Virus record (IMG/VR): IMGVR_UViG_2563366972_000002
Location: 1 to 32,195 of that record
DNA from: a virus
Lineage: Duplodnaviria > Heunggongvirae > Uroviricota > Caudoviricetes
Direction: 5' to 3' (one strand)
Length of the DNA: 32,195 nucleotides
The translations under genes and the position numbers were made by a program. Numbering within the stretch: the first letter of the stretch is position 1; every line of letters begins with the position of its first letter. The notes under the pieces are model-generated. The model worked only from the letters and a program-made list of their open reading frames with translations, had not been told where the DNA came from and did not search any database. Shown here piece by piece: positions 3,254 to 24,162 of this stretch.

Positions 3254-3525
3254 GTATTCGTATTGAAATTGGCGAACGTTATGTCGTTACCAGTGACAGC
3301 TTTCAGTTTATTCTCCACGAGAAAAAGAGAGCGGAAAGCGGTAAAAACGCCGGTCAGGAATGGCTGGCGGTGGTTGGTTATTACCCGAAATTAAGCCAGC
3401 TCGTTTCCGGCCTGATGCATCACGATATTCTGACCGGAAGCGCAAAGTCTTTTGCTGATTTAAACGCGCAGGTTGAGCAACTCAGCAAGCGTTGTTCAGA
3501 GGCTTTTGGCTCATATGGCCGTTAA
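3250..3525 (+). CDS. Hypothetical early protein (P2 orf83 position)
   Basis: 91-aa ORF, translationally coupled (ATGA) to the upstream gene. Confidence 0.55.
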   Translation: MSIRIEIGERYVVTSDSFQFILHEKKRAESGKNAGQEWLAVVGYYPKLSQLVSGLMHHDILTGSAKSFADLNAQVEQLSKRCSEAFGSYGR

Positions 3526-5794
3526 AGCCTCCGGGCGTTTTGTCCCTCCGTCAGCATTTGCCGCAGGCACCGGTAAGACGTTTACCGGTGCTTATGCATG
3601 GAACACGCCACGCGAGGCTGTCGGGCGCGAAAGACCCCTTACACGTGACGAGATGCGTCAGGTGCAAGGTGTTTTATCCACGATTAATCGCCTGCCTTAC
3701 TTTTTGCGCTCGCTGTTTACTTCACGCTATGACTACATCCGGCGCAATAAAAGCCCGGTGCACGGGTTTTATTTCCTCACATCTACTTTTCAGCGTCGTT
3801 TATGGCCGCGCATTGAGCGTGTGAATCAGCGCCATGAAATGAACACCGACGCGTCGTTGCTGTTTCTGGCAGAGCGTGACCACTATGCGCGCCTGCCGGG
3901 AATGAATGACAAGGAGCTGAAAAAGTTTGCCGCCCGTATCTCATCGCAGCTTTTCATGATGTATGAGGAACTCAGCGATGCCTGGGTGGATGCGCATGGC
4001 GAAAAAGAATCGCTGTTTACGGATGAGGCGCAGGCGCATCTGTATGGTCATGTTGCTGGCGCTGCACGTGCTTTCAATATTTCCCCGCTTTACTGGAAAA
4101 AATACCGTAAAGGACAGATGACCACGAGGCAGGCATATTCTGCCATTGCCCGTCTGTTTAACGATGAGTGGTGGACTCATCAGCTTAAAGGTCAGCGTAT
4201 GCGCTGGCATGAGGCGTTACTGATTGCTGTCGGGGAGGTCAATAAAGACCGTTCTCCTTATGCCAGTAAACATGCCATTCGTGATGTGCGTGCGCGCCGC
4301 CAGGCAAATCTGGAATTTCTTAAATCGTGTGACCTCGAAAACAGGGAAACCGGCGAGCGCATCGACCTTATCAGTAAGGTGATGGGCAGTATTTCTAATC
4401 CTGAAATTCGCCGGATGGAGCTGATGAACACCATTGCCGGTATTGAGCGTTACGCCGCCGCAGAGGGTGATGTGGGGATGTTTATCACGCTGACCGCGCC
4501 GTCAAAGTATCACCCGACACGTCAGGTCGGAAAAGGCGAAAGTAAAACCGTTCAGCTTAATCACGGCTGGAACGATGAGGCATTTAATCCAAAGGATGCG
4601 CAGCGTTATCTCTGCCGTATCTGGAGCCTGATGCGCACGGCATTCAAGGATAATGATTTACAGGTCTACGGTTTGCGAGTCGTCGAGCCACACCACGACG
4701 GAACGCCGCACTGGCATATGATGCTTTTTTGTCATCCACGCCAGCGTAACCAGATTATCGAAATCATGCGTCGCTATGCGCTCAAAGAGGATGGCGACGA
4801 AAGAGGAGCCGCGCGAAACCGTTTTCAGGCAAAACACCTTAACCGGGGCGGTGCTGCGGGATATATCGCGAAATACATCTCAAAAAACATCGACGGCTAT
4901 GCACTGGATGGTCAGCTCGATAATGATACCGGTAGGCCGCTGAAAGACACAGCTGCGGCTGTTACCGCATGGGCGTCAACGTGGCGCATTCCGCAATTTA
5001 AAACGGTTGGTCTGCCGACAATGGGGGCTTACCGTGAACTACGCAAATTGCCTCGTGGCGTCAGCATTGCTGATGAGTTTGACGAGCGCGTCGAGGCTGC
5101 ACGCGCCGCTGCAGACAGTGGTGATTTTGCGTTGTATATCAGCGCGCAGGGCGGGGCAAATGTCCCGCGCGATTGTCAGACTGTCAGGGTCGCCCGTAGC
5201 CCGTCGGATGACGTTAACGAGTACGAGGAAGAAGTCGAGAGAGTGGTCGGCATTTACGCGCCGCATCTCGGCGCGCGTCATATTCATATCACCAGAACGA
5301 CGAACTGGCGCATTGTTCCGAAAGTGCCGGTCGTTGAGCCTTTGACTTTAAAAAGCGGCATCGCCGCGCCTCGGAGTCCTGTCAATAACTGTGGAAAGCT
5401 CACTGGTGGTGATACTTCGTTACCGGCTCCCACACCTTCTGAGCACGCCGCAGCAGTGCTTAATCTGGTTAATGACGGTGTCATCGAATGGAGTGACCCG
5501 GAGGTCGTGAGGGCACTCAGAGGTGCATTAAAACACGGACTGAGAAGACCAAACCGTCAGCAAAGAAACGGAAGTATGTTAAAACCGCATGAAATTGCAC
5601 CATCTGCCAGACTGACCAGGTCTGAACGATTGCAAATCACTCGTATCCGCGTTGACCTTGCTCAGAACGGTATCAGGCCGCAGCGATGGGAGCTTGAGGC
5701 GCTGGCGCGTGGTGCGACCGTAAATTATAACGGGAAAAAATTCACGTATCCGGTCGCTGATGAGTGGCCGGGCTTTACTGGCAGTACCACATAG
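3515..5794 (+). CDS. A: Replication initiation protein A (rolling-circle HUH endonuclease)
   Basis: Large ORF. Start chosen at ATG 3515 (MAVKASGRF...) to match the P2 A N-terminus; the ORF track start at 3473 adds 14 aa. Contains HUH-like motif PHWHMMLF and the tyrosine motif GYIAKYISK. Confidence 0.9.
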   Translation: MAVKASGRFVPPSAFAAGTGKTFTGAYAWNTPREAVGRERPLTRDEMRQVQGVLSTINRLPYFLRSLFTSRYDYIRRNKSPVHGFYFLTSTFQRRLWPRIERVNQRHEMNTDASLLFLAERDHYARLPGMNDKELKKFAARISSQLFMMYEELSDAWVDAHGEKESLFTDEAQAHLYGHVAGAARAFNISPLYWKKYRKGQMTTRQAYSAIARLFNDEWWTHQLKGQRMRWHEALLIAVGEVNKDRSPYASKHAIRDVRARRQANLEFLKSCDLENRETGERIDLISKVMGSISNPEIRRMELMNTIAGIERYAAAEGDVGMFITLTAPSKYHPTRQVGKGESKTVQLNHGWNDEAFNPKDAQRYLCRIWSLMRTAFKDNDLQVYGLRVVEPHHDGTPHWHMMLFCHPRQRNQIIEIMRRYALKEDGDERGAARNRFQAKHLNRGGAAGYIAKYISKNIDGYALDGQLDNDTGRPLKDTAAAVTAWASTWRIPQFKTVGLPTMGAYRELRKLPRGVSIADEFDERVEAARAAADSGDFALYISAQGGANVPRDCQTVRVARSPSDDVNEYEEEVERVVGIYAPHLGARHIHITRTTNWRIVPKVPVVEPLTLKSGIAAPRSPVNNCGKLTGGDTSLPAPTPSEHAAAVLNLVNDGVIEWSDPEVVRALRGALKHGLRRPNRQQRNGSMLKPHEIAPSARLTRSERLQITRIRVDLAQNGIRPQRWELEALARGATVNYNGKKFTYPVADEWPGFTGSTT

Positions 5795-6097
5795 CTGAAT
5801 ACTTTAATTGACGCTGAAACTATCAGAGGGGATGTGTTTGATTAAATAAACAATGTGTTGAGATCTACTTACTGGGTTGTTGATAAGAAAATTTAGCTCT
5901 TGGTCAGCAAGAGGTTATACTGATTGCGATTAGGCTAGGGATAACATGGGCAATTTCTGTTGTTGGAAGCTGGGTTTTACGAGCGAAAAAAGTATGTGAT
6001 TTGTGGTTTTGCCCTTATAGTATGCGCAATTTAGGAGTTAAAACTATAACCATAAGCTTTAATTATTTCTACTTTTTAGGTATGTCCGGAGGCTCTC

Positions 6098-7093
6098 ATG
6101 ACTACTAAGCCAATGAGTCGACTATATGAAAAAATCAGCAAGGCGGGGTTTAGCCGTTCATTTATACGCAAAGTCTTACCTTCATGGTGGGACGACAGCC
6201 TAGCTGATACACCTTCAGGTAAGCAGTACGCTAGCCTTCATTTGGCTCGTGTTTTTAGTTTGTCTCCAGAAAGTCTCAAGGATGGTTCTGAATCTGCGTC
6301 TTTCAACCTTGGTGGAAATCATCGCTTTAAACATCGTGTAAATCTTGGTGAGGAAGACCTGAATGTTGCTACTGCCGTTGCATATTCTGCGGCGAGGATT
6401 GTAGCAGAGAATTTCAGTATCCCGTTTAATCCAAACGCAGAACTTAATTGGCAGGCAGTGAGGGATAAACTGCTCAGCGATAAAAAGTGGGTGGATTTGG
6501 CTTCTCTGATTGGTTTTTGCCATTCGTTAGGCATTCCTGTTGTCTACATTAAGAACTTTCCAACGGGTGCGGCAAAAATGGCTGGCCTTGCATTAAGTGT
6601 ATCTGGTAGGCCAGTAATTGTTTTAACCCAAGCTAAAACTCATGGATTTATGCTATTTGATTTGGCTCATGAGCTTGGTCATATTGCACTAGGCCATCTC
6701 AATGATCTCAATGGGGGGGTTCATGTTGATCGCAAAATTGAAGCGCAGTCTACTAACAATCTTGAGGTGGCAGCTAACAAATATGCCTTTGGTTTGATTG
6801 GTGGAAAAGAGACTTTGAGAATAGCACCTACAAGGGGCTATCTCACAGGTGAAAAATTGGCTAGAGCTGCGCTAGCATATGGTACACAGCATTGCATAGA
6901 GCCAACTCATGTAGCTTTGAACTATGGTCACAATTTAGGGCACTGGGGAGTGGCTGTTAACGCTGTTAAAAGTATTTGCGTGGGACAACCGACGGACCAA
7001 TCTTTAGCTAGGCAGCTCATGATGGATGCCATCGATCACGAAAATATTAATGACGACGACTTAGAACTTTTAACGACGCTATGTGGGGTTTAA
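6098..7093 (+). CDS. ImmA/IrrE-like (M78-type) HEXXH zinc metallopeptidase with about 130-aa N-terminal extension; cargo gene 1
   Basis: 331 aa. HELGH at residues 191-195 (6668..6682), followed by H200, preceded by the GIPV...G...RPVIVL...FMLFDLAHELGHIALGH context typical of ImmA/IrrE peptidases. GGAGG RBS 5 nt upstream. Lower GC (about 43-45 percent by eye) than the phage backbone. Lies where P2 carries tin/old. Confidence 0.6.
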   Translation: MTTKPMSRLYEKISKAGFSRSFIRKVLPSWWDDSLADTPSGKQYASLHLARVFSLSPESLKDGSESASFNLGGNHRFKHRVNLGEEDLNVATAVAYSAARIVAENFSIPFNPNAELNWQAVRDKLLSDKKWVDLASLIGFCHSLGIPVVYIKNFPTGAAKMAGLALSVSGRPVIVLTQAKTHGFMLFDLAHELGHIALGHLNDLNGGVHVDRKIEAQSTNNLEVAANKYAFGLIGGKETLRIAPTRGYLTGEKLARAALAYGTQHCIEPTHVALNYGHNLGHWGVAVNAVKSICVGQPTDQSLARQLMMDAIDHENINDDDLELLTTLCGV

Positions 7094-7096
7094 GTA

Positions 7097-7738
7097 GTGA
7101 TCGTTCTTTCAGACAATGATGTCATTTTGAAACTAGCGCAGTGTAATTTACTCCGTTACCTTCCTGAGATTTTGGAAGAGGATCCGCGAGGCATCTATGT
7201 TAGTCCGACGGCTCGTTTTCAATTATTACCGCGCAATACTGATAAAGCCATTAAGAAGTGCGGTAGTGTGGCTATTTACGAAAATGTGGAAAGATTTCTA
7301 GGAAGTGTGCAAGTTATTGATGAAATCAGAAACGATGATTTGCTGATTAAACTTGGTGAGATACCACACATAGATGTCGGCGAACAACAGCTTTTAGCTG
7401 CATGCGTTGAGCAACCAGGAGCTTTGTTCATGACAGGTGACCGTCGATGTTTGCAGGCTGTGATGGACAATCAGACTATTGTCGCTACGGTTCATGCGCG
7501 TCTAATTGACTCAGTAATAACCTATGAGAGTGCTCTTTTGCTTTCTGTTCGCGTTTTAGGATTTGAGACTCTATATCAACAACTACAAACGAACCCGAAT
7601 CCAGATGCAATGCTGAGGATGGCTATGCGTTCTCGCAGCTCAGAAGATGTTTGTGGCTGCTTCTTTTCTTATACGCGCCCTGTATACGATTATCTGGCCT
7701 TTAAACAACATTTACCGGATCGTGCTTGGTTGCTTTAA
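7097..7738 (+). CDS. Putative PIN-like nuclease; cargo gene 2, partner of the metallopeptidase
   Basis: 213-aa ORF with a GTG start 3 nt after the gene 1 stop and in the same frame; GGGG 8 nt upstream. Acidic residues spaced like a PIN fold: N-terminal VLSDNDVILKL (D6/D8), E26-E28, HIDVGEQQLLAAC (D93), ALFMTGDRR (D115). The fold assignment is inference from motif pattern only. Confidence 0.4.
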   Translation: MIVLSDNDVILKLAQCNLLRYLPEILEEDPRGIYVSPTARFQLLPRNTDKAIKKCGSVAIYENVERFLGSVQVIDEIRNDDLLIKLGEIPHIDVGEQQLLAACVEQPGALFMTGDRRCLQAVMDNQTIVATVHARLIDSVITYESALLLSVRVLGFETLYQQLQTNPNPDAMLRMAMRSRSSEDVCGCFFSYTRPVYDYLAFKQHLPDRAWLL

Positions 7739-7801
7739 TCTATCCGTAATGAGTGTTTAGCGCATCAATTTGCATGAGTATATGATGCACGAATATTATA
7801 T

Positions 7802-7827
7802 AGCCCGTCAGTAATGGCGGGCTTTTT
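7802..7827 (+). terminator. Rho-independent terminator downstream of the cargo cassette
   Basis: Hairpin AGCCCG(7802..7807)-loop-CGGGCT(7818..7823) followed by a T-run ending at 7827. Confidence 0.6.
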
Positions 7828-7871
7828 ACTATCTGGTGCATCTGCATCAAAACCGCCCCATGAAGCGGGCG

Positions 7872-7890
7872 GGCGAGGCGGGGAAAGCAC
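7872..7890. other. cos cohesive-end site (19-nt P2-type sequence GGCGAGGCGGGGAAAGCAC)
   Basis: Exact 19-mer present at 7872..7890 inside a GC-rich non-coding stretch immediately upstream of Q, matching the recalled P2 cohesive end and the expected position between old and Q. Confidence 0.7.
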
Positions 7891-8030
7891 TGCGCGCTGG
7901 CGGTGGTGCTGATTTTATTTTTTCAGCGTCTCAGCGCGTCGTGACGGCGCTTAGTCTGCCCGTTGAGGCGTTGGTGTGTCTGCGGGGTGTTTTGTGCGGT
8001 GGTGAGCGTGTGAGGGCGTGATGACGGGGT

Positions 8031-8054
8031 GTAAAAAAGCCGCCCGCAGGCGGC
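8031..8054 (-). terminator. Rho-independent terminator following Q (minus strand)
   Basis: Hairpin GCCGCC(8039..8044)-CGCA-GGCGGC(8049..8054) with an A-run at 8033..8038 on the plus strand, which is a U-run after the stem on the minus-strand transcript. Confidence 0.55.
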
Positions 8055-8059
8055 GATGT

Positions 8060-9094
8060 TCAGCCGTTGTCAGTGTCCAGTGAGTAGTTTTTAAATCGGA
8101 TGACCTCCTGACCGAGCCAGCCGTTTATCTCGCGGATCCTGTCCTGTAACGGGATAAGCTCATTGCGGACAAAGACCTTTGCCACTTTCTCAATATCACC
8201 CAGCGACCCGACGTTCTCCGGCTTGCCGCCCATCAACTGAAAGGGGATGCGGTGCGCGTCCAGCAGGTCTGCGGCGCTGGCTTTTTTGATATTAAAAAAA
8301 TCGTCTTTCGTCGCCACTTCACTGAGCGGGATAATTTTAATGCCGTCGGCTTTCCCCTGTGGGGCATAGAGAAACAGATTTTTAAAGTTATTGCGGCCTT
8401 TCGACTTAACCATGTTTTCGCGAAGCATTTCGATATCGTTGCGGTCCTGCACGGCATCAGTGACGTACATGATGTATCCGGCATGAGCGCCGTTTTCGTA
8501 ATACTTGCGGCGGAACAGCGTGGCCGACTCATTCAGCCAGGCAGAGTTAAGGGCGCTGAGATATTCCGGCAGGCCGTACAGCTCCTGATTAATATCCGGC
8601 TCCAGCAGATGAAACACGGAGCCAGGTGCGAAGGCTGTCGGCTCGTTGAAGGAAGGCACCCACCAGTAAACATCCTCCTCCACGCCACGGCGGGTATATT
8701 TTGCCGGTGAGGTTTCCAGTCTGATGACCTTGCCGGTGGTGCTGTAACGCTTTTCCAGAAACGCATTGCCGAACACCAGAAAATCCAGCACAAAGCGGCT
8801 GAAATCCTGCTGGGACAGCCACGGGTGCGGGATAAACGTTGAAGCCAGAATATTACGTTTGACGTAAATCGGTGATCTGTGATGTACGGCAGCACGCAGG
8901 CTTTTTGCCAGACCGGTAAAGCTGACCGGTGGCTCATACCATCTGCCGTTACTGATGCACTCGACGTAATCCAGAATGTCACGGCGGTCGAGTACCGGCA
9001 CCGGCTCGCCAAAGGTGAATGCTTCCATTTTCGGGGCGCTGGCGGTCATTTTTTTTGCCGCAGGTTGCGGTGTTTTCCCTTTTTTCTTGCTCAT
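8060..9094 (-). CDS. Q: Portal protein
   Basis: 344-aa ORF, the P2 Q size, adjacent to cos and overlapping the P stop (ATGA). Confidence 0.9.
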   Translation of the reverse strand: MSKKKGKTPQPAAKKMTASAPKMEAFTFGEPVPVLDRRDILDYVECISNGRWYEPPVSFTGLAKSLRAAVHHRSPIYVKRNILASTFIPHPWLSQQDFSRFVLDFLVFGNAFLEKRYSTTGKVIRLETSPAKYTRRGVEEDVYWWVPSFNEPTAFAPGSVFHLLEPDINQELYGLPEYLSALNSAWLNESATLFRRKYYENGAHAGYIMYVTDAVQDRNDIEMLRENMVKSKGRNNFKNLFLYAPQGKADGIKIIPLSEVATKDDFFNIKKASAADLLDAHRIPFQLMGGKPENVGSLGDIEKVAKVFVRNELIPLQDRIREINGWLGQEVIRFKNYSLDTDNG

Positions 9095-10866
9095 CAGTAA
9101 AACTCCAGAATGGTGGATGTCAGTGGGGTGCTGATACCGGCGGTGAGTGGCTCATTTAACAGGGCGTGCATGGTCGCCCAGGCAAGGTCGGCGTGGCTGG
9201 CTTCCTCGCTGCGGCTGGCCTCATAGGTGGCGCTGCGTCCGCTGCTGGTCATGGTCTTGCGGATAGCCATAAACGAGCTGGTGATGTCGGTGGCGCTGAC
9301 GTCATATTCCAGACAGCCACGACGGATAACGTCTTTTGCCTTGAGCACCATTGCGGTTTTCATTTCCGGCGTGTAGCGGATATCGCGCGCGGCGGGATAG
9401 AACGAGCGCACGAGCTGGAACACGCCGACACCGAGGCCGGTGGCATCAATACCGATGTATTCGACGTTGTATTTTTCGGTGAGTTTGCGGATGGATTCCG
9501 CCTGGGTGGCAAAGTCCATGCCTTTCCACTGGTGACGCTCAAGTATTCTGAATTTGCCACCGGCCACCACCGGCGGTGCCAGTACCACGCATCCGGCGCT
9601 GTCGCCACGGTGTGACGGGTCGTAACCAATCCATACCGGGCGGGAGCCGAACGGATTTGCGGCAAACGGCGCATAGTCTTCCCATTCTTCCAGTGTGTCG
9701 ACCATGCAGCGTTGCAGCTCCTCGAACGGGAACACCGACGCCTTGTCGTCAACAAATTCACACATGAACAGGTTTTTAAAATCGTCGGCGCTGTTTTCAC
9801 GTTTGAGCTGCTCAATGTCGAACAGCGTGCAGCCACCTTTCAGGGCGTCCTCAATGGTGACAATCTGCCGCCACTGGCCGTCCGCACAGAGAAGACCTCC
9901 GGCAAGGGCGTTATGACTGACGTCGATTTCCACGCGTTCGGCGGCGCTGGCGCGTCCCCGGTTGAACAGTTCACCCGACCAGAACGGGTAGGCGTCGTGC
10001 GCCAGCGTGGACGGGGTGGAGAAATAGGTCGAGCGCAGGTGACTCTGTGAGGCCATACCAGATGCCACCTTACGCAGTACCTGAAAATTCGGGATCCAGA
10101 AAATCTCGTCGACGTACAGGTCGCCGTTATGGCTCTGTGCGGTGTTGGAGTTGGTGCCGAGAAAAATCAGTTTTGCGCCGTTATTGCCCAGGACAATCGG
10201 GTCACCGGTCAGGTCAACGTCAACCAGCCGGGCAAAGGCGATGATGTATTCACGGAACACATACGCCTGCGTTTTACTGGCCGACAGAAAAATCTGGTTA
10301 TGGCCGGTTTTCAGGGCGCGCAGCAGCGCCTCGCGGGAAAAATAAAACGTCGCGCCAATCTGGCGGGATTTCAGGATATCGCGGATGCGGTGCTCAAGCC
10401 CGGCACGATACCAGTGCAACTGATAGTCGAAAGACTGCTCAAAGAAAATCTGCTCCAGCTTTTCGATGGCCTCGTCACTGAAAAAATTCTTTTTCGGTTT
10501 GCGACGCCCGCCTTTGTTGCGGTTAGCGACGTTCGGATTAAGGTCTGCCTCGTTGCCGGTCTGGCTGTAGCGGTTGACCCGTGCCAGTCGTTCAATCTGG
10601 CGTCCCAGCAGGTCAATTTCCTTGAAGTCACCGCCGGTTTTCTGCGGTTTGATGATGAGCTGGGTCAGCCGCGCTTCCAGACTCATTTCGACACGGCTGA
10701 TGGGGGCAACGCTGTCCCAGCCGTCGCGCTGTTTCCAGCTCTGCACCGTCGGGCGTTTCATCTGCAACATGGCGGCAATCTGCGGCACGGAAAACCCCTG
10801 CCAGTACAGCAGCGCCGCCTGACGACGCGGGTCGTGTAAAAGAGTGGTGTCTGTGGTGATGGTCAT
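9094..10866 (-). CDS. P: Terminase large (ATPase) subunit
   Basis: Start chosen at ATG 10866 (MTITTDTTLL..., GAGG RBS), giving 590 aa, the P2 P length; the ORF track start at 10896 adds 10 aa. Confidence 0.9.
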   Translation of the reverse strand: MTITTDTTLLHDPRRQAALLYWQGFSVPQIAAMLQMKRPTVQSWKQRDGWDSVAPISRVEMSLEARLTQLIIKPQKTGGDFKEIDLLGRQIERLARVNRYSQTGNEADLNPNVANRNKGGRRKPKKNFFSDEAIEKLEQIFFEQSFDYQLHWYRAGLEHRIRDILKSRQIGATFYFSREALLRALKTGHNQIFLSASKTQAYVFREYIIAFARLVDVDLTGDPIVLGNNGAKLIFLGTNSNTAQSHNGDLYVDEIFWIPNFQVLRKVASGMASQSHLRSTYFSTPSTLAHDAYPFWSGELFNRGRASAAERVEIDVSHNALAGGLLCADGQWRQIVTIEDALKGGCTLFDIEQLKRENSADDFKNLFMCEFVDDKASVFPFEELQRCMVDTLEEWEDYAPFAANPFGSRPVWIGYDPSHRGDSAGCVVLAPPVVAGGKFRILERHQWKGMDFATQAESIRKLTEKYNVEYIGIDATGLGVGVFQLVRSFYPAARDIRYTPEMKTAMVLKAKDVIRRGCLEYDVSATDITSSFMAIRKTMTSSGRSATYEASRSEEASHADLAWATMHALLNEPLTAGISTPLTSTILEFY

Positions 10867-11039
10867 GAATACCTCGCCGTGATGAATACACGGCAAGGCT
10901 ACTGAGTCGCGCCCCGCGATTCGCTAAGGTGCTGTTGTGTCAGTGATAAGCCATCCGGGACTGATGGCGGAGGATGCGCATCGTCGGGAAACTGATGCCG
11001 ACATGTGACTCCTCTAATCACTATTCAGGACTCCTGACA

Positions 11040-19732: not shown

Positions 19733-22051
19733 ATGAGCACAAAATTCAGAACCGTTATCACCACTGCCGGTGCAGCAAAGCTGGCAGCGGCAACCGCGCC
19801 GGGAGGGCGGAAGGTCAACATTACCACGATGGCCGTCGGGGATGGCGGTGGTAAATTGCCTGTCCCGGATGCCGGACAGACCGGGCTTATCCACGAAGTC
19901 TGGCGACATACGCTGAACAAAATCAGCCAGGACAAACGAAACAGTAATTATATTATCGCAGAGCTGGTTATTCCGCCGGAGGTGGGCGGTTTCTGGATGC
20001 GTGAGCTTGGCCTGTACGATGATGCGGGAACGTTAATTGCCGTGGCGAACATGGCCGAAAGTTATAAGCCAGCTCTTGCCGAAGGCTCAGGGCGTTCGCA
20101 GACCTGTCGCATGGTCATCATCGTCAGCAGTGTGGCCTCGGTGGAGCTGACCATTGACACCACAACGGTGATGGCGACACAGGATTACGTTGATGACAAA
20201 ATTGCAGAGCACGAACAGTCACGACGTCACCCGGACGCCTCGCTGACCGCAAAAGGTTTTACTCAGTTAAGCAGTGCGACCAACAGCACGTCTGAAACAC
20301 TGGCCGCAACGCCGAAAGCGGTAAAGGCCGCCTATGACCTTGCTAACGGGAAATATACCGCACAGGACGCTACCACAGCGCGAAAAGGTCTTGTCCAGCT
20401 CAGTAGTGCCACCAACAGCACGTCTGAAACGCTCGCCGCAACACCAAAAGCGGTAAAGGCCGCGTATGACCTTGCTAACGGGAAATACACTGCACAGGAC
20501 GCCACCACAGCGCGAAAAGGTCTTGTCTAGCTCAGTAGCGTCACCAACAGCGATTCTGAAACGCTTGCGGCAACGCCAAAGGCGGTAAAGACAGCGTATG
20601 ACCTTGCTAACGGGAAATACACTGCACAGGATGCCACTACAGCGCGAAAAGGTCTTGTCCAGCTCAGTAGCGCCACCAACAGTGATTCTGAAACGCTGGC
20701 CGCAACATCAAAAGCGGTGAAGTCTGCCTATGACAATGCTGAAAAACGTCTTCAGAAAGATCAGAACGGTGCGGATATTCCGGGAAAGGATACCTTCACG
20801 AAAAATATCGGTGCCTGTCGTGCTTATAGCGGCGCTTTGAGCACTGAAGCCGGAAACTGGACAACCGCTCAGTTTATTGAATGGCTGGATTCCCGTGGTG
20901 CATTTAATCATCCGTACTGGATGTGCAAAGGCTCCTGGTCATATGCAAATAACAAAATCATTACGGATACCGGATGTGGTGATATCCACCTGGCTGGTTG
21001 TGTCGTCGAGGTCATGGGAATTAAATCTGCAATCACTATCCGAGTGACCACGCCGACAACATCAAGTGGTGGCGGTACAACCAGCGCGCAATTCACTTAC
21101 ATTAATCATGGGGACGGCTACTCCCCCGGCTGGCGTCGTGACTGGAATCGTCAGGGCGACGCAATGACCGGAACGATTAATCAGGACGGCGGAAGCCAGA
21201 ATGCCTATATGTCTACGGCCTTATGTTCAGGCACCAGAGGCGGCAAAAAATATCTCAGAAAGTTTCGTGGTGGAGAAGGAGACACTATCTGGCATGAAAC
21301 AGTACAGGGCGGGGTAGTTCGCTGGGCGACTGGTAATACTGATGCTCAGGAAGAATTATCACTCAGCTCCGCTTATGGTCTCCGTTCAAGAGGTGAAATT
21401 ACATCACTCAGTGCTAATGGTCTGCGCATTGCTTATGGCAATTATGGATTCTTTATCAGGAATGATGGCGGCAGCACATATTTAATGCTGACGGCCTCTG
21501 GCGATAAATTTGGGACATGGAACGGTTTAAGACCGCTGACTATCAATAACGCCAATGGCGGAGTGTCAATGGGGCATGGCCTGAGTGTTACAGGTGATAT
21601 TGTCTCAAGTACCAAAGTACGTGCCGGTAGCGGGAAAAAGTTCACGGTCAGCAGCAGCAATACATCCACGAAGGAAGCCGCATTCAATTTGTGGGGAAAC
21701 TCAAGTCGTCCTGTGGTGGCTGAATTAGGTGATGATGCAGGCTGGCATTTTTACAGTCAGAGAAATACAGATAACAGCATCACTTTTGCTGTTAACGGGC
21801 AGGTATCACCATCTAACTATGGCAACTTTGATTCACGCTATGTCCGGGATATCCGGCTTGGTGGTGCTGCCACATACAAACCTGCGAACAATGGCATGAC
21901 ATGGACACATCAGGCACCGTCCGGGTGTGTATATTCCGGGATTATTGTTCAGGATACCGGCTCAAACTCTGCCGATAACATTGGTGGCGTATATTACAGG
22001 CCAGTACAGAAATATATTAACGGGACATGGTATAACGTGGCGCAGGTATAA
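19733..22051 (+). pseudogene. H: Tail fibre protein H, one continuous frame interrupted by a single in-frame TAG at 20528..20530 (either a nonsense-disrupted gene or a sequencing/assembly artefact in a repeat)
   Basis: The ORF track entries 19733..20530 and 20717..22051 are in the same frame; translating 20531..20716 by hand gives no further stops. The TAG sits where the other three repeat copies have CAG. The 20717 start in the ORF track is an internal GTG. Confidence 0.65.
20264..20734 (+). repeat. In-frame tandem repeat inside H, about 3.6 copies of a 132-bp (44-aa) unit
   Basis: Copies begin at 20264, 20396, 20528 and 20660, each encoding QLSSATNS(T/D)SETLAATPKAVKAAYDLANGKYTAQDATTARKGLV with a few substitutions; the fourth copy diverges after about 20731. 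Confidence 0.85.
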
Positions 22052-22887: not shown

Positions 22888-24162
22888 ATGAGTGTCATAA
22901 AAGATTTTTTAGAACAATATAGCAAGCAGTATGATTACTATTCTGAGTTGGCAAAAATAGGCTCAAGCTTGCTCGAGCAGGAATTGGAAAAGAGAGGGAT
23001 TAAAGCCATAGTTTCATTCAGAGCTAAGCGACCAGACCGCTTAGAACAAAAACTTAATCAAAGAAATGAAAAGTCAGCATATGCAGATGTTGCTAATATA
23101 TATGAAGATATTGTCGACCTGGCCGGTGTTCGAGTAGCTTTATATTTTCCAAAAGATAGAGAAGTAGTTGATGAAACTATTAATTTTTTATTTAATGTCC
23201 GGAAAAAGAAAAACTTTCCAGAAGCATCTTATAAACCTAAATTTGAAAAAAGGTTTTCTGGTTACTGGGCATCTCATTATCGTGTCAATTTGAAAAACTC
23301 TAACCAAAATAATAAGCGTTACGAAAGTGCATTATTTGAGATTCAAGTAGCATCGGTTCTTATGCATGCCTGGTCCGAAGTCGAACATGACCTTGTTTAC
23401 AAACCTCTAGCAGGCGATTTATCTGAAGAGGAACTTGCAATTCTAGATGAGATTAATGGATTAGTGCTTACTGGCGAAATAGCTCTTGAAAGACTTCAAA
23501 AAGCCATAACAAAAAGAACTAAAGAAAAAGATAATATTTCAAATAGATATGAGTTAACGAGTTTTATAACCAACTCACTAAATAAGAATTATATAAGCAA
23601 ACTTAAATTAGGTGATACTAAAATTTTATTTAATTATCTCAAGGGTAATTCTAGCATAAGCGTCAGTGAACTTTCTGAATATTTGCGTAAAATTAATCAA
23701 AGTGAAAAAGAAACAATCACAGATCAATTGCTTCTTATGTTTATTAATGATTCATACAAGAGCGTTGGAGGTAATTTAAAACTTTCAAATTATTTCAAAC
23801 GTGCTCTTGGGGAACATAAGGATGTATCAGGGTTTGAGTCATTTGTTAAAACATGGATTTTACTAGAAAAAGCAGTCTCTTTAATTCATAATCAAAACAA
23901 TCGCCAGCACAAAAAATTCTTCACCGCAAAATTTGAGCCATTGGTTTCTGACGGAGTGCTGACGCGAGAAGAGTCATTTGAACTAAACTATTTTAAAAGA
24001 ATCAGAAATAACTTACTTCATGGTATAGAAACACCTAACGATGAAGAGCTAAACGAAATGTTCGTTAGATTGTTAGCATTAACTGAGAAGGTTATCTCAT
24101 CTATTAAAAATGATGATGATAAAGCTAAATTGCTCAAAGAATTAAAGACGTTGAGTGATTAA
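22888..24162 (+). CDS. RelA/SpoT-family nucleotidyltransferase (toxSAS-like) with Cys-free C-terminal domain; CapRel-like fused toxin-sensor candidate at the Z/fun locus
   Basis: 424 aa. N-terminal half carries the RelA/SpoT synthetase-fold motifs in order: SFRAKRPDRLEQKL, DIVDLAGVRVALYF, GYWASHYRV, EIQVASVLMHAWSEVEHDLVYK. C-terminal about 230 aa is K/N-rich, has no cysteine, and includes RIRNNLLHG. AAGGAG RBS. About 28-30 percent GC by eye, against about 50 percent in the flanking phage genes. Confidence 0.65.
   Translation: MSVIKDFLEQYSKQYDYYSELAKIGSSLLEQELEKRGIKAIVSFRAKRPDRLEQKLNQRNEKSAYADVANIYEDIVDLAGVRVALYFPKDREVVDETINFLFNVRKKKNFPEASYKPKFEKRFSGYWASHYRVNLKNSNQNNKRYESALFEIQVASVLMHAWSEVEHDLVYKPLAGDLSEEELAILDEINGLVLTGEIALERLQKAITKRTKEKDNISNRYELTSFITNSLNKNYISKLKLGDTKILFNYLKGNSSISVSELSEYLRKINQSEKETITDQLLLMFINDSYKSVGGNLKLSNYFKRALGEHKDVSGFESFVKTWILLEKAVSLIHNQNNRQHKKFFTAKFEPLVSDGVLTREESFELNYFKRIRNNLLHGIETPNDEELNEMFVRLLALTEKVISSIKNDDDKAKLLKELKTLSD

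Follow-up and report, generated by a model that had tools for sequence, protein, structure and literature searches.

A two-gene cassette located between gene A and cos of a P2-like prophage encodes a zinc peptidase of the M78 (ImmA/IrrE) family, followed closely by a predicted PIN-like nuclease. The two genes have been kept together across distantly related bacteria, and their catalytic motifs are intact. We judge the chances somewhat better than even that the cassette is a toxin-antitoxin (TA)-like module serving as anti-phage cargo, with superinfection exclusion or abortive infection (Abi) as its outcome. The window referred to throughout is the whole stretch of viral DNA analysed, 32,195 nucleotides in length; the features discussed are collected in Table 1.

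Table 1 Coordinates of the cassette, its genes and control elements, and the flanking backbone genes in the 32,195-nucleotide window.
Feature	Position	Strand	Details
gpA (gene A, replication endonuclease)	3473-5794		
Variable cargo cassette, P2 hotspot 1 (gene A end to cos)	5773-7836	.	Defined by homology breakpoints and GC
Upstream non-coding block, promoter/operator-like	5981-6046	+	66 nt; defined by conservation
-10-like TATAGT	6016-6021		Conservation only
Gene 1 ribosome-binding site (RBS), GGAGG	6088-6092	+	
Gene 1, M78 (ImmA/IrrE-type) zinc peptidase	6098-7093	+	331 aa
Gene 2, PIN-like predicted nuclease	7097-7738	+	213 aa
Intrinsic-terminator-like hairpin and T-run after gene 2	7802-7829	+	Hairpin 7802-7823
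cos (presumed), P2 sequence	7872-7890		19 nt, GGCGAGGCGGGGAAAGCAC
Portal gene	8060-9094	-	
Portal and terminase genes Q and P	8060-10896	-	Other flank of the cargo slot

A variable cassette occupies the A-to-portal slot of a P2-like prophage

A P2-like prophage makes up the window, and approximately 80% of its length aligns to phages Wphi and P2 at approximately 97% identity. The cassette follows gpA and is succeeded by the string GGCGAGGCGGGGAAAGCAC, which we take to be P2 cos, and then by the portal and terminase genes on the opposite strand. The same string also borders the hotspot constructs in Table S2 of Rousset et al. 2022. The A-to-portal slot houses tin, old and four of the new defence systems described by Vassallo et al. 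2022, and was reported as a defence hotspot by Rousset et al. 2022. Rapid turnover of this slot in P2, with mostly defence cargo, is supported by Vassallo et al. 2022, by comparison with other P2-like phages and by PMC13586616.

Homology to the P2-like phage vB_YpM_50, as determined by sequence comparison, ends at position 5772 and resumes at position 7837. The slot of vB_YpM_50 contains a DUF3850 protein and a hypothetical protein, and a Fic protein is the cargo in other P2-like phages. In such phages the flanks match those of the window, but the cassette does not. The GC content of the upstream spacer (0.366), gene 1 (0.438) and gene 2 (0.430) is lower than that of gpA (0.532) and of Q and P (0.557); overall, the cassette lies between 0.37 and 0.45, compared with 0.53 to 0.56 for its flanks. 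Its layout is simple, with two genes on the same strand followed by a terminator-like hairpin. Thus, the initial annotation was right to place two open reading frames in the tin/old slot beside cos, and to describe them as a different cassette with a GC content below that of the backbone.

Gene 1 encodes an M78-family zinc peptidase

The product of gene 1 was matched by the Peptidase_M78 profile (PF06114) over residues 143 to 235, with a score of 31.5 bits (E = 1.7e-7) against a curated cut-off of 22 bits. The sequence HELGHIALGH spans residues 191 to 200. This HEXXH motif and the downstream helix that supplies the glutamate ligand (E..AN.FA) are both intact, and together constitute the signature of ImmA/IrrE proteases. 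Across 38 homologues sharing 40 to 85% identity, residues H191, E192, H195, H200, E223, A226, N227 and A230 show no variation, and HE(L/I)GH is retained in five distant partners. Additionally, a fold test revealed a resemblance to solved M78 proteases of the CapP/IrrE-like kind. The identification of gene 1 as an M78/ImmA-IrrE peptidase is therefore supported, as had been proposed on the basis of its HEXXH motif; H191 and E192, put forward earlier as targets for mutation, are correctly numbered.

The protein comprises an N-terminal helical region (residues ~1 to 60), a linker (~61 to 84), the peptidase core (~85 to 235) and a C-terminal helical domain. Five helices and an invariant LLPxWWDD motif make up the N-terminal region. 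The linker is flexible, is predicted with low confidence and carries a conserved KFKHR motif (residues 76 to 80), while the C-terminal domain finishes in a conserved acidic tail, INDDDLELL (residues 317 to 325). The LLPxWWDD motif, the KFKHR linker and the acidic C-terminal domain all lie outside the peptidase core and are specific to this family. A profile search using the N-terminal domain returned a repeat-protein artefact as its sole match, and no helix-turn-helix (HTH) was detected in gene 1 by Pfam. The PADLOC models that match gene 1, namely capP, RmrA (14 models) and PD-Lambda-2_B, do so over the peptidase core only, with E-values between 1e-6 and 5e-2.

Gene 2 is predicted to adopt a PIN-like fold

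Gene 2 initiates at a GTG codon 3 nt past the stop codon of gene 1. Searches of its product against Pfam, NCBIfam and PADLOC returned nothing at E <= 1, and in PHROGs it belongs to a family of unknown function. An AlphaFold model generated from 37 homologues was confident (pLDDT 91, pTM 0.88) and revealed a PIN core with a helical insertion (residues ~37 to 90) and a C-terminal helical extension (~156 to 213). When this model was submitted to Foldseek, the top 16 matches were PIN/VapC proteins, with probabilities of 0.87 to 1.00 and weak E-values of 0.06 to 1.

An alignment of 71 relatives of gene 2 (23 to 50% identity) revealed eight invariant residues: D6, D8, K12, G95, E96, G114, D115 and E144. 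Of the acidic members, D6 and D8 follow strand 1, E96 resides in a helix, D115 (within a TGD motif) follows strand 3 and E144 follows strand 4, and the predicted strands at residues 2 to 4, 110 to 112 and ~139 to 141 fit these positions. In the model, this acidic pattern fits that expected of a PIN active site. Compared with a minimal PIN core the protein possesses ~110 more residues, some of which are conserved (P167, D170, S191 and K203).

A single member of the 71 relatives touches the Pfam PIN family PF01850 (E = 0.004), and none has a match in NCBIfam. Across the wider family PADLOC yielded scattered matches to PDC-S70, SIR2 and HEC-01B, at E-values of 2e-4 or weaker. Matches of the family to Cas12a and RbcX, obtained by sequence-profile searching of the PDB, were spurious and were dropped. 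Assignment of gene 2 as PIN-like is supported by the predicted structure and the motif pattern, and is not detected by sequence profiles. The PIN-like partner of the initial annotation thus stands with respect to the predicted fold and the acidic residues D6, D8, E96, D115 and E144, but not with respect to a sequence-profile match to a PIN family.

An exhaustive profile search with gene 2 retrieved 1,220 representatives at E <= 1e-3 and 518 at E <= 1e-10, each representing a cluster at 50% identity. Nearly all members of the family are 200 to 220 residues in length. The gene 2 family is a large one that is missed by Pfam, NCBIfam and PADLOC v2.0.0.

Alternatively, since its catalytic motif is strictly conserved, the gene 1 peptidase could be the effector, a Lit-like protease whose target is a protein of the host or of a phage, or else an anti-defence factor; gene 2 would then serve as a sensor or adaptor built upon a degenerate or RNA-binding PIN-like fold. 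A precomputed Pfam label, Peptidase_U49 (the Lit family), on one distant partner pointed in the same direction. However, the label was not reproduced upon re-scoring, where the same protein scored against M78 (E = 0.0057) and M48 alone, and the link to Lit was accordingly dropped. Moreover, gene 2 keeps its acidic residues without exception down to 23% identity, which argues for an active enzyme rather than an adaptor. We regard an effector or anti-defence role for the peptidase as decidedly improbable.

The two genes are consistently paired

To define the association between the genes, we considered 19 loci retrieved through homologues of either gene. A gene 2 homologue is immediately preceded by a full-length homologue of gene 1 in all 19, which originate from Enterobacterales, Methylococcales, Crenothrix, Janthinobacterium, Zoogloea, Thiodictyon and Herbaspirillum. 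The same was true of more distant gene 2 relatives (27 to 33% identity), for which the upstream gene at each of five loci matched gene 1 along its whole length (E = 1e-57 to 1e-112). Locus L029 displays the same arrangement. Gene order and tight spacing are kept in 25 of 25 related loci, with intergenic distances ranging from -20 to +33 nt and a 4-nt overlap as the commonest configuration; the gap in the window is 3 nt.

Pairwise identities for gene 1 and gene 2 are strongly correlated (r = 0.98 over 24 pairs) and near-equal in value, indicating that partners have not been swapped within the family. This co-divergence shows that the pair is co-inherited. It is compatible with a physical interaction between the two proteins, although it does not constitute proof of one.

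A conserved upstream block resembles a promoter

The non-coding block upstream of gene 1 is 86 to 92% identical between cassettes in which the third codon positions of gene 1 are only ~33% identical. It is conserved among enterobacterial cassettes, and moves with the cassette into non-P2 contexts (loci L009 and L010). The GGAGG RBS of gene 1 is supported by an alignment of seven cassettes, in which GGAGGCTCT(C/T)ATG is invariant. In relatives, the inverted repeat ATAGTTATGA...TCATAACTAT brackets the -10-like element. The copy in the window is degenerate, and neither inverted nor direct repeats were found in the upstream spacer of the window; a sigma-70 scan found no promoter on the plus strand. 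Judging from its conservation, the block probably acts as a promoter and contains operator sites, as would be expected if the operon were autoregulated. Downstream of gene 2, the terminator-like stem comprises nine base pairs, six of them G-C, and is followed by TTTTT. An Rfam Trp_leader match over this hairpin was sub-threshold (22 bits against 41) and was rejected.

The pair is carried by diverse mobile elements

Homologue searches returned E-values down to 1e-217 for gene 1 and 1e-135 for gene 2. Exact copies of the gene 1 protein were identified on 629 public contigs and of the gene 2 protein on 554, from E. coli, Salmonella and other Enterobacteriaceae together with one metagenomic phage contig. 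Of 5,426 complete E. coli genomes, 12 carry an identical cassette (at least 99.7%). In the genome from this set that was read (H8), it occupies the same slot of a P2-like prophage and is annotated as 'ImmA/IrrE family metallo-endopeptidase' and 'hypothetical protein'. No match was obtained when the cassette was compared by megablast with 50,697 phage records. Diverged pairs, with protein identities of 55 to 73%, fill the A-to-portal slot of P2-like prophages whose gpA is just 36 to 65% identical; their hosts are an Enterobacterales MAG, Enterobacter soli, Citrobacter and Klebsiella.

The pair is also found on other elements. It lies straight after the integrase in a Methylococcus locus (L002), on an island with a primase, and in Herbaspirillum (L004) it follows the integrase gene of a filamentous-phage-like element of the Zot type. 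At a further locus it adjoins P4 cII and Beta_protein genes, and in Rouxiella its surroundings are a prophage remnant, with a BstA-like gene nearby.

The occurrence of the pair beside integrases in various types of mobile element, combined with the same TA-like anatomy, would also be expected of an addiction module that stabilises the prophage or mobile element through post-segregational killing and has no role against other phages. Against this, an integrated prophage would gain little from plasmid-style addiction, and the P2 slot, as noted above, turns over fast and is dominated by defence cargo. An addiction module without a protective role appears quite unlikely to us.

In integrative elements, immA-like genes typically sit after the integrase. 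The pair takes up precisely this position in L002 and L004, a placement that is typical of such genes (PMC10440598) and would be consistent with an ImmA/ImmR-type switch over induction or excision of the element, to which gene 2 would be an accessory. This explanation is weakened because no Xre-type repressor gene lies beside the pair in any locus read; specifically, no Xre-family repressor was found between gpA and cos, nor in L002, L004 or L024 to L029. Additionally, the pair in P2-like phages is located in the slot for cargo genes, a long way from the C/Cox switch, and the partner of the peptidase is a PIN-like protein rather than an HTH repressor. A switch of the ImmA/ImmR type consequently seems hardly probable at all.

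Comparison with characterised and predicted systems

An architecture comprising a peptidase and a PIN-like protein was predicted as a TA type by Matelska et al. 2017 (PMC5499597), whose predicted set includes three-component combinations of an HTH protein, DUF955 (COG2856) and a PIN-like protein (DUF4411, COG2405, PIN_14, PIN_20 or PIN_26). As in that work, a DUF955/M78 gene lies upstream of a gene for a PIN-like protein of the VapC-like group, in which three to five acidic residues are conserved; in the window, the DUF955 protease gene and the PIN-like gene follow one another in this order across the 3-nt gap. Unlike the DUF4411 systems, however, none of the 71 gene 2 relatives matches Pfam DUF4411 at E <= 0.01. 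In Ernits et al. 2023 (PMC10440598), antitoxins with an ImmA domain form a hub whose partners include PIN-like toxins, and 'Rosmer-like' ImmA-antitoxin TA systems correspond to node D25 of the NetFlax network.

RosmerTA (RmrT/RmrA) is a validated defence system whose antitoxin possesses a Zn-peptidase (Millman et al. 2022). Like RosmerTA, the cassette is a two-gene module of mobile elements in which one partner contains an M78/ImmA zinc-peptidase domain. The 14 PADLOC RmrA profiles match gene 1 partially, over 40 to 90 residues of the peptidase core (E = 2e-6 to 5e-2). In contrast to RosmerTA, gene 1 carries distinct conserved domains at its N terminus (LLPxWWDD) and C terminus and lacks a Pfam HTH, and gene 2 matches no model of PADLOC-DB v2.0.0, those for RmrT included, at E <= 1. 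By current models, therefore, the toxin does not qualify for RosmerTA membership, and the similarity of the antitoxin appears to be at the domain level only.

PD-lambda-2, a validated TA-like defence system of E. coli mobile elements with an Xre-peptidase component (Vassallo et al. 2022), likewise possesses an ImmA/IrrE peptidase-domain protein, and the PADLOC model PD-Lambda-2_B matches the peptidase core of gene 1 (E = 9.9e-6). However, it consists of three genes, one for a HigB-like toxin, one for an Xre-peptidase with toxicity of its own and one for a P4-antitoxin-like protein, and contains no PIN-like component. As validated defences with ImmA-type antitoxins, RosmerTA and PD-lambda-2 count in favour of an anti-phage TA-like reading of the cassette.

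The pair also departs from several other classes. In contrast to VapBC, the upstream partner is a 331-residue metallopeptidase and not a small VapB of the AbrB, RHH or Phd type; gene 2 itself is ~80 residues longer than VapC, with which it has no detectable sequence similarity. Unlike CapH/CapP, IrrE/DdrO and ImmA/ImmR, there is no separate gene for an Xre repressor substrate beside the pair, and the partner is PIN-like. Neither a CBASS nor a repair regulon is found beside it, unlike CapH/CapP and IrrE/DdrO.

Table S5 of Rousset et al. 2022 lists P2 loci described as 'Peptidase_M78 + hypothetical' (WP_000208725 and WP_000636521). The proteins annotated on the present cassette are WP_000208724 and WP_000636522; from the adjacency of these accession numbers we infer that the two pairs are near-identical. 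The M78 locus is absent among the candidates in two of the four parts of Table S2. A tested 'Peptidase + TM' candidate listed there (pFR104) is unrelated, comprising a 160-residue peptidase and a membrane partner, and the PIN-containing DefensePredictor systems DS-3 and DS-5 have different architectures. A literature search found no paper naming or testing the gene 1-gene 2 family.

The novelty claimed for the pair in the initial annotation was overstated: the architecture had been predicted (PMC5499597) and noted (PMC10440598), defences with ImmA-type antitoxins had been validated, and a locus is present in Table S5 of Rousset et al. 2022.

Proposed mode of action

In a TA-like anti-phage module, our preferred reading, gene 2 would be the toxic effector, a metal-dependent nuclease of the PIN-like type whose target is most likely RNA. 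Gene 1, translated together with it from one operon, would control it. In the uninfected lysogen, gene 1 would hold gene 2 inactive, most likely by direct binding. The M78 protease activity of gene 1 would provide a switch that responds to a signal, as such activity does in ImmA, IrrE and CapP. Stress or an infecting phage would supply a cue that alters the state of the protease, through cleavage of gene 1, gene 2 or their complex. The freed gene 2 nuclease would then cut RNA, bringing the growth of both cell and phage to a stop. The active site of gene 1 is strictly conserved, suggesting that proteolysis forms part of the switch, since a pure binding antitoxin would have no need of it. A protease-gated Abi or TA-like module, as originally proposed, is the best reading of the cassette, and its function in this capacity is plausible.

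If proteolysis is involved, an activation cascade must also be weighed. Here gene 2 would be a pro-nuclease, kept inactive by its own insertion or C-terminal extension, and a phage-sensing gene 1 would cleave it into activity. The catalytic residues of the peptidase are invariant family-wide, so proteolysis appears to have been selected, and gene 2 carries the partly conserved residues past the minimal PIN core noted above. Moreover, the M78 proteases ImmA, IrrE and CapP are site-specific and signal-activated (PMC5499597, PMC10440598). Conversely, the known substrates of M78 proteases are HTH repressors and not nucleases, and an arrangement in which a large controller precedes a translationally coupled effector is equally typical of antitoxin-toxin pairs. 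We therefore consider such a cascade unlikely, and take the same view of the broader proposal that the pair founds a large unannotated defence family (~1,200 clusters at 50% identity) in which an M78 protease proteolytically licenses a PIN-like pro-nuclease. If true, a licensing cascade would differ mechanistically both from antitoxins that act by binding and from the repressor-cleaving switches of ImmA, IrrE and CapP.

Significance of the pair

The pair is an uncharacterised addition to the known class of M78-peptidase-controlled toxin modules, and the cassette is a reasonable candidate defence module, sited where defence cargo is expected. Should it prove to be an addiction module only, the finding would be routine. 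If the cassette protects, however, a widespread family that is invisible to Pfam, NCBIfam and PADLOC v2.0.0 would join the defence catalogue, recognisable in every locus read as a ~210-residue PIN-like protein beside a specific ~330-residue M78 peptidase. A protective cassette would also provide a tractable E. coli/P2 model for the role of the intact M78 domains in 'Rosmer-like' antitoxins, for which signal sensing, self-cleavage and toxin cleavage are the candidates.

A conserved non-coding block 5' of the peptidase gene

The 5' flank of gene 1, which encodes the M78 peptidase, contains a non-coding block that is 86-92% conserved, compared with approximately 33% at the synonymous sites of the genes downstream. 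In the relatives' copies of this block, a 10-bp inverted repeat flanks a TATAGT -10 element on both sides.

Features of the prophage and of related loci
Feature	Sequence	Coordinates	Strand	Context
Conserved non-coding block	Window	5981-6046		5' of peptidase gene; counterparts upstream of gene 1 in L007, L008, L009, L010 and L029
Tail-fibre gene H	Window	19733-22051	+	Broken by in-frame TAG at 20528-20530
424-aa protein	Window	22888-24162	+	Between tail-fibre assembly gene and sheath gene FI
Extra cargo, ~3 kb	L006 (P2-like prophage, Enterobacterales MAG)	7637-10612		Between gene pair and portal gene
Distant gene pair	L025	5060-6672		Adjoins P4-type cII and Beta_protein genes
Distant gene pair	L026	2087-3768		Adjoins P4-type cII and Beta_protein genes

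Further cargo and the tail-fibre gene

The 424-aa protein occupies the second P2 cargo slot, at the Z/fun position. It possesses an N-terminal RelA_SpoT nucleotidyltransferase domain (residues 45-172; Pfam E 1.4e-13), while PADLOC returned only a weak match, to PDC-S33 (1.5e-8). The protein looks like a candidate fused toxin-antitoxin defence protein of the toxSAS/CapRel type.

Gene H reads GLV*LSS at the internal stop and GLVQLSS in the next copy of the repeat. Because the TAG splits the gene into two ORFs sharing one frame (19733-20530 and 20717-22051), the sequence suggests that this prophage may be unable to produce functional tail fibres.

Distant gene pair and a natural allele of gene 1

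L025 and L026 hold a distant copy of the pair formed by gene 1 and gene 2. Its peptidase carries a precomputed Peptidase_U49 (Lit) label, which was not reproduced in a fresh Pfam scan. Given that P4-type cII and Beta_protein genes adjoin this pair, P4-type satellites may be further carriers of the two genes.

A natural frameshift allele of gene 1 was identified in an E. coli assembly as P0331 and P0332 (accessions MCZ6347226/MCZ6347225). The gene is split after residue 208, so that the HEXXH motif lies before the break and the E223 ligand beyond it. Should gene 2, encoding the PIN-like predicted nuclease, be intact beside this split gene, it would argue against gene 1 acting as an essential antitoxin.
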